DNA from: Christensenella sp. UBA7571
Lineage (GTDB): Bacteria > Bacillota > Clostridia > Christensenellales > CAG-917
Assembly (NCBI GenBank): GCA_002476605.1
Contig: DLLD01000005.1
Location: forward strand, 702-64,701
Length of the DNA: 64,000 nucleotides
Direction: 5' to 3'
Below are positions 16,889 to 40,393 of this stretch, piece by piece (position 1 is the stretch's first letter; every line of letters begins with the position of its first letter). Under the pieces are notes generated by a model, which saw only the letters and a list, made by a program, of their open reading frames with translations, was not told the origin of the DNA and ran no database searches. Made by a program: the position numbers and the translations under genes.

Positions 16889-17030
16889 AAACGGGTGCAA
16901 AATTAACTCAAAAAGTGCAAAAAAATGCGCAAAAATTATGTTAATTTCGGGGCTGAATTATGTCATTTTTGCAAACCAAAATATCATAAAAGAGTGCAAA
17001 ATATCATAATCCCGACATTTTATGTTTAAG

Positions 17031-17215
17031 GAGTGATATTGCGGCGTTGCCGCAGTGATATTCTCGCAAAGCGAGAGTGATATTTTTGGCTGTGCCAAAA
17101 GTGATATTCGCACGGTGTGCGAGTTGAGGAATATTCGATATGCGCCTTCGGCTGGATTGCCACGTCGCAACGTTCGTTACTCCTCGCAATGACAAAAGGA
17201 GAATTGGAAGATTTG
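17031..17215 (+). repeat. composite repeat A: four AGTGATATT/hairpin units + GGAATATTC cap + X hairpin module
   Basis: 9-mers start at 17032, 17054, 17076 and 17100. Hairpins are GCGGC-GTT-GCCGC, CTCGC-AAA-GCGAG, TTTGGC-TGT-GCCAAA and CGCAC-GGT-GTGCG. X module is at 17155-17193. Confidence 0.9.
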
Positions 17216-17266
17216 CGGACGTGAGAAAAATTGGGGATAAAATCAAAGCAAAAATGCGTTTTGCTA

Positions 17267-17295
17267 TTGAATAATAAAAATATATTTGCTATAAT
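17267..17295 (+). promoter_or_regulatory. sigmaA promoter (extended -10) for hpf
   Basis: TTGAAT (17267-17272), 17 nt spacer, TGC-TATAAT (17290-17295). Confidence 0.6.
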
Positions 17296-21462: not shown

Positions 21463-21652
21463 GTTTTTGCGCCGAATGCGAGCAAAAGTCGTCGCTGTGG
21501 CAAAGACAACTCACAAGTTCATTGTCTACTGCCACGTTAGCCTTATTGCTCTACTAACCGAGCAACCGATACACGCTATCAGTATAGCAAGGATAAAAAC
21601 TCATACCACAGTTTCGCTATATCGATTGCTTGGTGTGTGCGGCTTGCGCCTA

Positions 21653-21827
21653 GATTCCCACGCTATCGCTCGGAATGACGAGAGGGTGGGACACCCACAC
21701 CCCGAACGGAATATTCCGCAACTCGCACGAAGTGCGAATATCACTTGCCGTTAGGCAAATATCACTCTCGCAAAGCGAGAATATCACTGCACCTATGGTG
21801 CAAATATCACTTGCGTGCTTGCACGCA
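21653..21827 (-). repeat. composite repeat B (inverted relative to A): X module, G-rich hairpin, GGAATATTCC, four AATATCACT/hairpin units
   Basis: X module is at 21653-21679 and GGAATATTCC at 21708-21717. 9-mers start at 21737, 21758, 21780 and 21803. There are five hairpins. The element ends 13 nt before the ruvA ATG. Confidence 0.9.
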
Positions 21828-21840
21828 ATAAAGGTGTAAA

Positions 21841-22425
21841 ATGTACAATTACATTCAAGGTAAAATAGTAGATAAGACGCTTTCCACGATAGTGGTGGAT
21901 AACAACGGCATCGGTTACGAAATCGGCGTGAGCGGAAATACGCTTATGGACGTCGATTTGGGTGAAATCGTCAAGATTTATACCTATCTTTACGTGAGAG
22001 AAGACGAGATGTCGCTTTACGGCTTTTCGCGCACGGACGAGAAAAGATTGTTTATGCGCCTTATCGAAATCAGCGGTATCGGTCCGAAGCTTGCAATGCA
22101 AATTCTCGGCGGTTACGACCTCAAAACGCTCACCGTGGCAATTGCAAGCGGTGACGTAAAGACGCTCACCAAAATCAAGGGACTCGGCAAAAAGACCGCG
22201 GAACTTATCGTGTTGAGCCTCCGTGAGCAAGTTGCGGACGATATAACCATATTCAACGACCACCAAGACGCACTTACGGGTGAAGACCTTGCGGACGTGG
22301 TGTTTGCGCTTGAAAGTCTCGGACTTTCCAAAACCGACGCGGTGCGTATGGCAACCGAGGCAAGCAAGAGAGTGCAAGGCACGGAAAATATTATCAGACA
22401 TTGCTTACAAAGTCTAAACAAATGA
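21841..22425 (+). CDS. ruvA: Holliday junction DNA helicase RuvA
   Basis: MYNYIQGKIVDK..., HhH motifs IEISGIGPKLA and IKGLGKKTAE. Confidence 0.92.
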   Translation: MYNYIQGKIVDKTLSTIVVDNNGIGYEIGVSGNTLMDVDLGEIVKIYTYLYVREDEMSLYGFSRTDEKRLFMRLIEISGIGPKLAMQILGGYDLKTLTVAIASGDVKTLTKIKGLGKKTAELIVLSLREQVADDITIFNDHQDALTGEDLADVVFALESLGLSKTDAVRMATEASKRVQGTENIIRHCLQSLNK

Positions 22426-27013: not shown

Positions 27014-27166
27014 AGTGATATTTGCCTACGGCAAGTGTTATTCTCGCGTAGCGAGAGTGATATTTTTTGCTTGCGCAAAAAGTGATATTGCGCCGTAGGC
27101 GCAGTTGTGGAGAATTTGTATTCGCTACGCTGGATTCCCACGGTCACTTCGTTCCCTCGTTATGCC
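27014..27166 (+). repeat. composite repeat D: four AGTGATATT/hairpin units + cap + X-like module
   Basis: 9-mers start at 27014, 27034 (variant AGTGTTATT), 27056 and 27081. Hairpins are TGCC-TAC-GGCA, CTCGC-GTA-GCGAG, TTTTGC-TTGC-GCAAAA and GCGCC-GTA-GGCGC. The X-like module is at 27133-27166. Confidence 0.9.
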
Positions 27167-27298
27167 ACTGCGCTTTGTGCGCCAGCTACGCAACAACACG
27201 GCGCAGTCGCTTGTACTAATCGTCAAGCTCGGCACTTATCTGCTCGTCGCCTTGCGACTCGAAGCTTCGAATAAACACATTCCGTTAATAAGTGCGCT
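27167..27298 (-). repeat. R1 element, inverted 5' half copy
   Basis: The reverse complement matches R1 from GCGCACTTATTAACGG through GCGCAGTGGC. It joins directly to the X-like module of repeat D. Confidence 0.85.
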
Positions 27299-40266: not shown

Positions 40267-40393
40267 GGAATATTCCACAACTCGCACGAAGTGCGAATAT
40301 CACTGTGACAAAGTCACAATATCACTTTTTGCGTAAGCAAAAAATATCACTTGCCAAAGGCAAATATCACTGCGCCTACGGCGCGATATCACT
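40267..40393 (-). repeat. composite repeat E: GGAATATTCC cap + five AATATCACT/hairpin units
   Basis: Cap is at 40267-40276. 9-mers start at 40296, 40318, 40343, 40363 and 40385 (variant GATATCACT). Hairpins are CGCAC-GAA-GTGCG, GTGAC-AAA-GTCAC, TTTTGC-GTAA-GCAAAA, TGCC-AAA-GGCA and GCGCC-TAC-GGCGC. Confidence 0.9.

Follow-up and report, generated by a model that had tools for sequence, protein, structure and literature searches.

The block of short words alternating with hairpins that lies between clpC and hpf in the 64,000-nt stretch of Christensenella sp. UBA7571 analysed here (the window) is a variant of an already catalogued RNA motif, Gut-1. Complete elements of this type consist of two inverted arms placed around, or directly upstream of, a small gene encoding a four-helix-bundle protein of family PF05635 (23S-rRNA-IVP/Avd-like, hereafter IVP). 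On the reading preferred here, to which we give about an even chance, the block is one orphan arm of such a hairpin-array element, and an oligomer of the IVP protein would dock on arrays of this kind.

The array of the clpC-hpf spacer (locus A, 17032-17121, forward strand) was recognised from its sequence, its match to Rfam and its predicted RNA fold. Four copies of AGTGATATT (17032, 17054, 17076 and 17100) serve as linkers, each followed by a perfect hairpin: GCGGC-GTT-GCCGC, CTCGC-AAA-GCGAG, TTTGGC-TGT-GCCAAA and CGCAC-GGT-GTGCG, respectively. The sequence continues with a cap, AGTTGAGGAATATTCG (17122-17137, forward strand), which is half of TGGAATATTCCA, the palindrome in which nearly every array ends, and then with a separate repeat module (17138-17215, forward strand) that forms a GGATTGCCACG...CGCAATGAC hairpin. 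This module, named X in the initial annotation, comes after many arrays and is also present without them; it lies outside the array family, as a frequent neighbour. By Pfam, the flanking genes encode a Clp ATPase (clpC) and an S30AE/HPF protein (hpf), in agreement with their first assignment. The layout, coordinates and sequences first described for 17031-17215 were likewise borne out, as was the count of four arrays and 17 units in 64 kb. With at most one mismatch, AGTGATATT occurs 37 times in the window, compared with 11.3 +/- 3.1 times in shuffled sequences, and none of 100 shuffles reached 37. Phased copies were found at four loci only, namely 17032-17108 and 27014-27089 on the forward strand and 21737-21811 and 40296-40393 on the reverse strand, and a search of the window gave 4+4+4+5 units.

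The other three arrays share the same anatomy. Locus B (21708-21828, reverse strand) comprises a pre-hairpin, four linkers with their hairpins and a cap; both neighbouring genes run antisense to it, and it lies directly against the ribosome-binding site (RBS) of the gene that starts at 21841. Locus C (27014-27118, forward strand) has four linkers with hairpins and a cap, directly 3' of the terminator of the upstream gene, and locus D (40267-40393, reverse strand) has five linkers with hairpins and a cap, also after a terminator.

The initial annotation held that no described repeat family had this layout, a statement that finds no support, as Rfam family RF01706 (Gut-1, Weinberg 2010) has exactly this architecture. 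In an Rfam scan RF01706 matched locus B with 53.5 bits and locus D with 50.4 bits, both reaching the gathering score of 50, and locus A with 39.0 bits (E 2.6e-6), loci A and C remaining below the gathering score; genome-wide, 46 matches were obtained at E <= 0.001. The arrangement of at least three adjacent A-U/U.G hairpins with a G-A-rich word is present as well. The RF01706 consensus contains four UGAAAU words with three hairpins between them, whose stems start A-U, U.G, and the corresponding word is here UGAUAU. Gut-1 was known solely from human-gut environmental sequence and was judged a likely ncRNA by Weinberg et al. 2010, in a published description of one sentence that treats it as an sRNA gene (PMC2864571). 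The arrays share with it the consecutive short hairpins, the A-U/U.G closing pairs and the conserved purine-rich joining word; uncultured human-gut bacteria are the source of both, and congeners of the source genome carry canonical GUGAAAU copies. They differ in their linker, which is GAU within AGUGAUAUU and not GAA within GUGAAAU, in having 4-7 hairpins followed by a constant terminal hairpin and a cap, and in being interspersed at high copy number and associated with a partner gene.

Within each unit, the stem reaches through ATT...AGT (A-U, U.G, U-A), so that the unpaired remainder is GAU only. The upper stem, of 4-7 bp, has no fixed sequence, and the loop is U-rich and 3-4 nt long. GAU joins the units, 4-5 in a string, which ends in the constant hairpin and the half-palindromic cap. 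Spacers measure 11-17 nt and the period is 20-26 bp, about two helical turns. Hairpins are perfect in 249 of 270 units genome-wide. In a set of 77 distinct units with 13-nt spacers, pairing holds in 98.7% of the cells. The three pairs at the base of the stem (A-U, U.G, U-A) do not vary, and double (compensatory) changes occur at each of the four variable pairs, at a level reached by none of 500 shuffles. Constraint on hairpin potential together with a fixed 9-mer, first read as selection, is backed by this pairing, by the compensatory changes and by the low divergence of stems and linkers between species.

The hairpins are not ever-different, as they had been called: genome-wide only about 14 stem types recur, in partly fixed order. 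Counting from the cap, CGCAC is the last stem in 38 of 60 arrays, TTTGGC/TTTTGC/TTTAGCC occupies the second position in 34 of 60 and CTCGC/TGCGC the third in 28 of 59, while the entropy of stem types rises outward (1.99, 3.25, 3.17 and 3.86 bits). The arrays are thus homologous copies which vary mainly at their cap-distal end. The loops are biased by strand (TTT 52 vs AAA 9, TTC 37 vs GAA 3, TAC 24 vs GTA 9), and orphan arms retain the strand-specific features, that is the U.G closing pair and the T-rich loops. Folded as RNA, the sense strand of locus A forms four hairpins of 8-10 bp (-40.1 kcal/mol, z -4.1) and the antisense strand shorter ones (-30.3 kcal/mol).

The source genome (G000; 1.71 Mb, 19 contigs, 96.7% complete; other G labels denote congeners) contains 256 exact 9-mers in 66 intergenic arrays, most with four linkers. 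The genome-wide count proposed in the initial annotation places the family well beyond the window. Four hairpins are found in 35 arrays and five in 25, on which grounds a fixed five-fold repeat number matching a pentamer was rejected. Relative to the upstream gene, 30 arrays lie on the same strand and 36 on the opposite one, gene positions around the arrays being simple ORF picks; across all 66 arrays no orientation bias was found with respect to local gene strand (31/66) or GC skew (29/66). The bias expected of an element transposed as single-stranded DNA or co-transcribed with its neighbours was thus not seen. A role as terminator was rejected: some units before T-rich hairpins look terminator-like, but orientation relative to genes is random. 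The nearest gene end or start is about 40 nt (median) away from the cap-distal end, whereas the cap end faces other repeat modules, and many copies abut an RBS in antisense or come after a terminator. A promoter-like site within 90 nt upstream was detected for only 8 of 66 arrays; the corresponding share is 27% for genes and 6% for random DNA. A search for promoters inside loci A and B found none; the hpf promoter (17267-17295) is downstream of locus A.

The array modules share intergenic DNA with at least five other repeat modules in a mosaic. Several of them come after the caps, in the window (17138-17215, 21640-21707 and 27119-27170) and at many sites of the genome: a GGATT(C/G)CCACG...GGAATGAC hairpin, TTCGGGTGTGGGTGTCCCACCC, an element of about 100 nt written GCAAAAGTCGTCGCTGTGGCAAAGACAAC..., and ATTAGCGCAATTT...CTCGTAGACAGGCGGAGCC. 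Another module, …AAATATCATAAAAG…GCAAAATATCATAATC.CGACATTTTATG…, precedes some arrays (window 16890-17030, G000 C10:18640-18697, G012 C10) and is common to G000 and G012 at clpC-hpf, though G012 has no array there. At G000 C6:83215-83235 the upstream gene takes its TGA stop codon from an array's first linker; in the sister species, which lacks an array at this position, the codon is TAA. Moreover, six overlapping Rfam Gut-1 matches offset by 63 nt at G004 C40:13694-14085 mark a long tandem run of units.

Across 25 congeners, exact-word arrays are abundant in G000, G012 and G017 only. Seven congeners have 25-46 Rfam Gut-1 matches each; 16 other families of the order gave none. The whole composite insert of locus A, which extends from the clpC stop to the hpf promoter (16889-17245, forward strand), is absent from the sister species G017, where flanks 95% identical enclose a 75-nt spacer with the hpf promoter only; this promoter is conserved in G000 and G017. 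G012 has other modules at this place and no array. The comparison of orthologous spacers suggested earlier therefore finds the clpC-hpf array in the source genome and misses it in both relatives, and the empty site of G017, together with the other modules of G012, argues against a locus-specific role for the loci of the window.

An outer-flank orthologue in 453 kb of G012 was available for 33 arrays of G000, and for 23 of them an array is present at the same place. Unit order is kept in nine of these 23 pairs, and in the other 14 whole units have been replaced, inserted or deleted; overall, 70 units agree, 18 have been replaced and 12 have been gained or lost. Matched units differ at 10/698 positions in their stems (1.4%), at 9/630 in their linkers (1.4%) and at 18/229 in their loops (7.9%; loops vs stems p = 8e-6), with flanks differing by 5.1%. 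Three units are replaced in the G012 orthologue of locus B, that of locus C has one extra 22-nt unit, and that of locus D differs in two loops and one linker base and in nothing else. The low divergence of stems and linkers could stem from gene conversion among the 66 copies instead of selection. Template switching or gene conversion over short tracts is indicated by the turnover of whole units at the 9-nt joints, and such a process could explain part of the apparent constraint. Past the cap, the sequences of G000 and G012 are often unrelated.

Two PF05635 genes are present in the source genome. The first, IVP1 (C13:67058-67411), lies about 2.4 kb past the end of the window and encodes 117 aa; it scores 97.1 bits against PF05635 (cut-off 33.8) and 106.6 bits against TIGR02436, and matches PDB 2RLD, a five-chain entry, with E 1.8e-29. 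It is enclosed by a pair of AGTGATATT arrays in inverted orientation, with a cap half turned towards the gene on either side (C13:67030-67440). The second (C12:99029-99402, in the region C12:98931-99615) has inverted AATTATTAATTA runs on its two sides, and a GGAAGGC-NNN-GCCTT hairpin closes each run. G000 contains about 35 AT-rich runs of this type, several of them joined cap-to-cap with Gut-1 arms (e.g. C1:81583-81725). Between G000 C15:2618-2710 and G012 C4:65816-65874, one and the same slot, bounded by GGGTGTGGGTGTCCCACCC and GGATTCCCACG modules, is occupied by a Gut-1 arm in the former and by an AT-run arm in the latter. Judging by this slot, the two kinds of arm appear to behave as interchangeable cassettes.

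The association between arrays and IVP genes extends to the relatives. PF05635 was detected in 10 of 12 Gut-1-positive congeners and in none of nine Gut-1-negative ones. The words of the arrays at the relatives' IVP genes vary: AGTGATATT in G012, where the locus is syntenic, AGCGATATT-like in G004 and G009, GATGATATC in G011, GTGAAAT in G015, G013 and G011, and AATGAAG in G006. On contig C82 of G015, canonical Rfam Gut-1 matches lie on the flanks of the IVP gene. G000 has arrays of the word type of its resident IVP only, and the GTGAAAT and GATATC arrays that are plentiful in other congeners are absent from G000, G012 and G017. The match between word and IVP is not clean, as G004 and G009 have many GATATC-type arrays, yet their single detected IVP carries AGCGATATT-like arms; in G017 no IVP gene was found despite 25 Rfam matches (assembly 93% complete, 170 contigs). 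Matching words do not prove recognition, in that a gene and its flanking repeat co-diverge in any element.

On a broader scale, phased triples of the exact word occur in at least 119 stretches of gut MAGs, human and ruminant, labelled Oscillospiraceae, Acutalibacteraceae, Christensenella and others. Eighty outside loci with AGTGATATT arrays contained four IVP ORFs, all four directly adjoining the array. Of 400 genomes sampled from the class, 97 contained homologues of IVP1, and in 16 of the 18 homologue loci examined, which belong to other Clostridia families, a two-armed word-hairpin array lies upstream of the IVP gene, with a terminator before the array. The last reverse word of those 16 arrays overlaps the -35 box of a TTGAAA-17-TATAAT promoter. 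The exact-word detector missed most arrays near IVP homologues; the sequences were therefore read directly, and a word-free count of hairpin trains was used, which has a high background for trains of three hairpins. Trains of at least four number 18 in 31 kb near IVP genes (within 400 bp) and 10 in 184 kb farther away, and are thus about ten times denser near the genes. At the IVP loci of other Clostridia (L183-L192), the ribosome-binding region has the form AGAGGTGATA(N)4-6 ahead of ATG, GTG or TTG. In its letters this region resembles the array word (A/G)GTGATAT, so that the leader of its own mRNA might be a further target of the protein.

We know of no function for PF05635 proteins outside diversity-generating retroelements (DGRs). 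A search of the literature for a link between Gut-1 and PF05635 found none, and in a CRISPR survey the '23S rRNA IVP' is listed only as linked to adaptation modules.

A conserved joint under helices free of sequence constraint fits a protein that grips helix junctions, and its repetition suits an oligomer. The repeated junction, GAU with the closing pairs, would accordingly be a candidate docking site of an oligomeric IVP protein, the hairpins being spacers that may present several docking sites at once. As the hairpins must fold, the active form is expected to be single-stranded. We infer a slight preference for folded or extruded DNA over RNA, which is only a little less probable. The DNA form is favoured by the random orientation and by the position upstream of a promoter and behind a terminator, and the RNA form by a sense strand that folds better and has the U.G pair and U-rich loops; hairpins of 5-9 bp are also short for extrusion from duplex. 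Since the array of a complete element makes contact with the -35 box of the IVP promoter, binding may exert feedback on the expression of IVP. Orphan arms would either add docking sites or be mere remnants, and the four loci of the window would have no regulatory role specific to their position. The arms presumably change by whole-unit exchange at the linkers, through template switching or gene conversion, and not by cut-and-paste transposition.

Of the competing readings, the one that survives best, though we find it rather doubtful, takes the arrays for palindromic intergenic repeats, selfish or neutral, which form a REP/BIME- or BOX-like mosaic and owe their uniformity to gene conversion and template switching; the IVP gene would be no more than a frequent passenger or neighbour, and the arrays would have no specific binder. 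It would account for the mosaics with at least five other modules, for the slot occupied by different kinds of arm in the two species (Gut-1 in G000, AT-run in G012), for the swapping of past-cap sequence between species, for the frequent exchange of whole units and for the random orientation relative to genes and GC skew. It is at odds with an IVP link that spans different words and Clostridia families with a geometry fixed relative to the IVP promoter, with the retention of strand-specific features in orphans, and with a genome that lacks a RAYT/Y1 transposase. REP/BIME/REPIN repeats with RAYT and pneumococcal BOX are likewise short, palindromic, intergenic and high-copy, sit in mosaics with other modules, and come and go between relatives; here, in contrast, there is no Y1/RAYT gene and no GTAG-type head, and the unit joins several different hairpins through a constant joint, in place of a single conserved palindrome. 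REP/REPIN with RAYT was rejected, PF01797 being absent from the 96.7%-complete genome. A plain MITE or transposon, the case which the initial annotation had set against its own proposal, was also rejected: four comparisons of empty and filled sites revealed no terminal inverted repeats and no target-site duplication, no transposase is adjacent, the orphans are one-armed and no Y1 transposase is present.

It is improbable that the arrays are phased operators of duplex DNA, in which a protein, IVP or another, reads the 9-bp words on one face of B-DNA every 22 bp or so and the palindromic spacers are incidental. The period of about two helical turns, the overlap of the last word with the -35 box of the IVP promoter in other genomes and the neutral orientation relative to transcription would suit such operators. 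Incidental spacers, however, would not have kept their perfect palindromic form across about 14 stem types and with compensatory changes; strict phasing is at odds with spacer lengths that range between 11 and 17 nt, and the conserved ATT/AGT flanks pair with each other.

Least probable, and in our judgement unlikely, are stand-alone ncRNA genes (Rfam type 'Gene; sRNA'), each array being transcribed as a multi-hairpin scaffold or sponge: structure conserved with covariation, the better fold and U.G closing pair of the sense strand and the opinion of Weinberg 2010 speak for them, but 66 copies, promoter-like sites upstream of only eight, the many copies antisense against an RBS or behind a terminator, the absence of the clpC-hpf copy in the sister species, and the position of complete-element arrays between the upstream terminator and the IVP promoter, where they are not obviously transcribed, speak against.

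Other known systems were compared as well. A CRISPR array, with repeats of at least 23 nt and unique non-palindromic spacers, was rejected in view of the 9-nt word and the palindromic 11-17-nt spacers of about 14 recurrent types. The 23S rRNA intervening sequences of the Leptospira type, which contain a PF05635 ORF, also place a small IVP gene between inverted repeats (see also PMC10053308); here, in contrast, the IVP gene is not part of an rRNA gene, and the arms are arrays of unrelated hairpins that would pair with each other via their 9-nt words only. Avd of DGRs belongs to the same Pfam family as the partner protein and shares its four-helix-bundle fold (PMC10053308), but no adjacent reverse transcriptase (RT) and no template/variable repeat pair are present here. 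Diversification of loops by a DGR or DGR-like system was rejected, the only RT (C4:126609-127622) being retron-like and on another contig. This RT (337 aa, VTG and YADD motifs) lies beside a 400-aa gene in G000 C4:123219-130126, the pair being flanked by two near-identical 206-aa sigma-like genes, and the region is probably a defence island.

The docking of an IVP oligomer on Gut-1-type arms, preferred here, may be part of something wider. As a tentative proposal, of which we are less than half persuaded, Gut-1-type arrays would be one half, and non-DGR PF05635 proteins the other, of a two-component system that has gone unrecognised, in which a ring-shaped IVP oligomer reads the joint (GAU and the closing pairs) between sequence-free hairpins and each IVP lineage has its own word. 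Gut-1 arms (IVP1) and AT-run arms (IVP2) would then be cassettes able to stand in for one another, taking up the same intergenic slots and rebuilding themselves unit by unit.

Gut-1 has been in Rfam since 2010 without organism, context or function, and the source genome now gives it an organism, in which it is a high-copy interspersed repeat and not a single RNA gene, with the constraint on stems and linkers measured in orthologous copies. The 117-aa PF05635 protein is a concrete and clonable candidate partner, through which an orphan motif and an orphan protein family become testable; PF05635 itself is a very large family that includes the DGR accessory protein Avd. If the two-component proposal is true, these elements would represent a transposase-free kind of mosaic mobile DNA.
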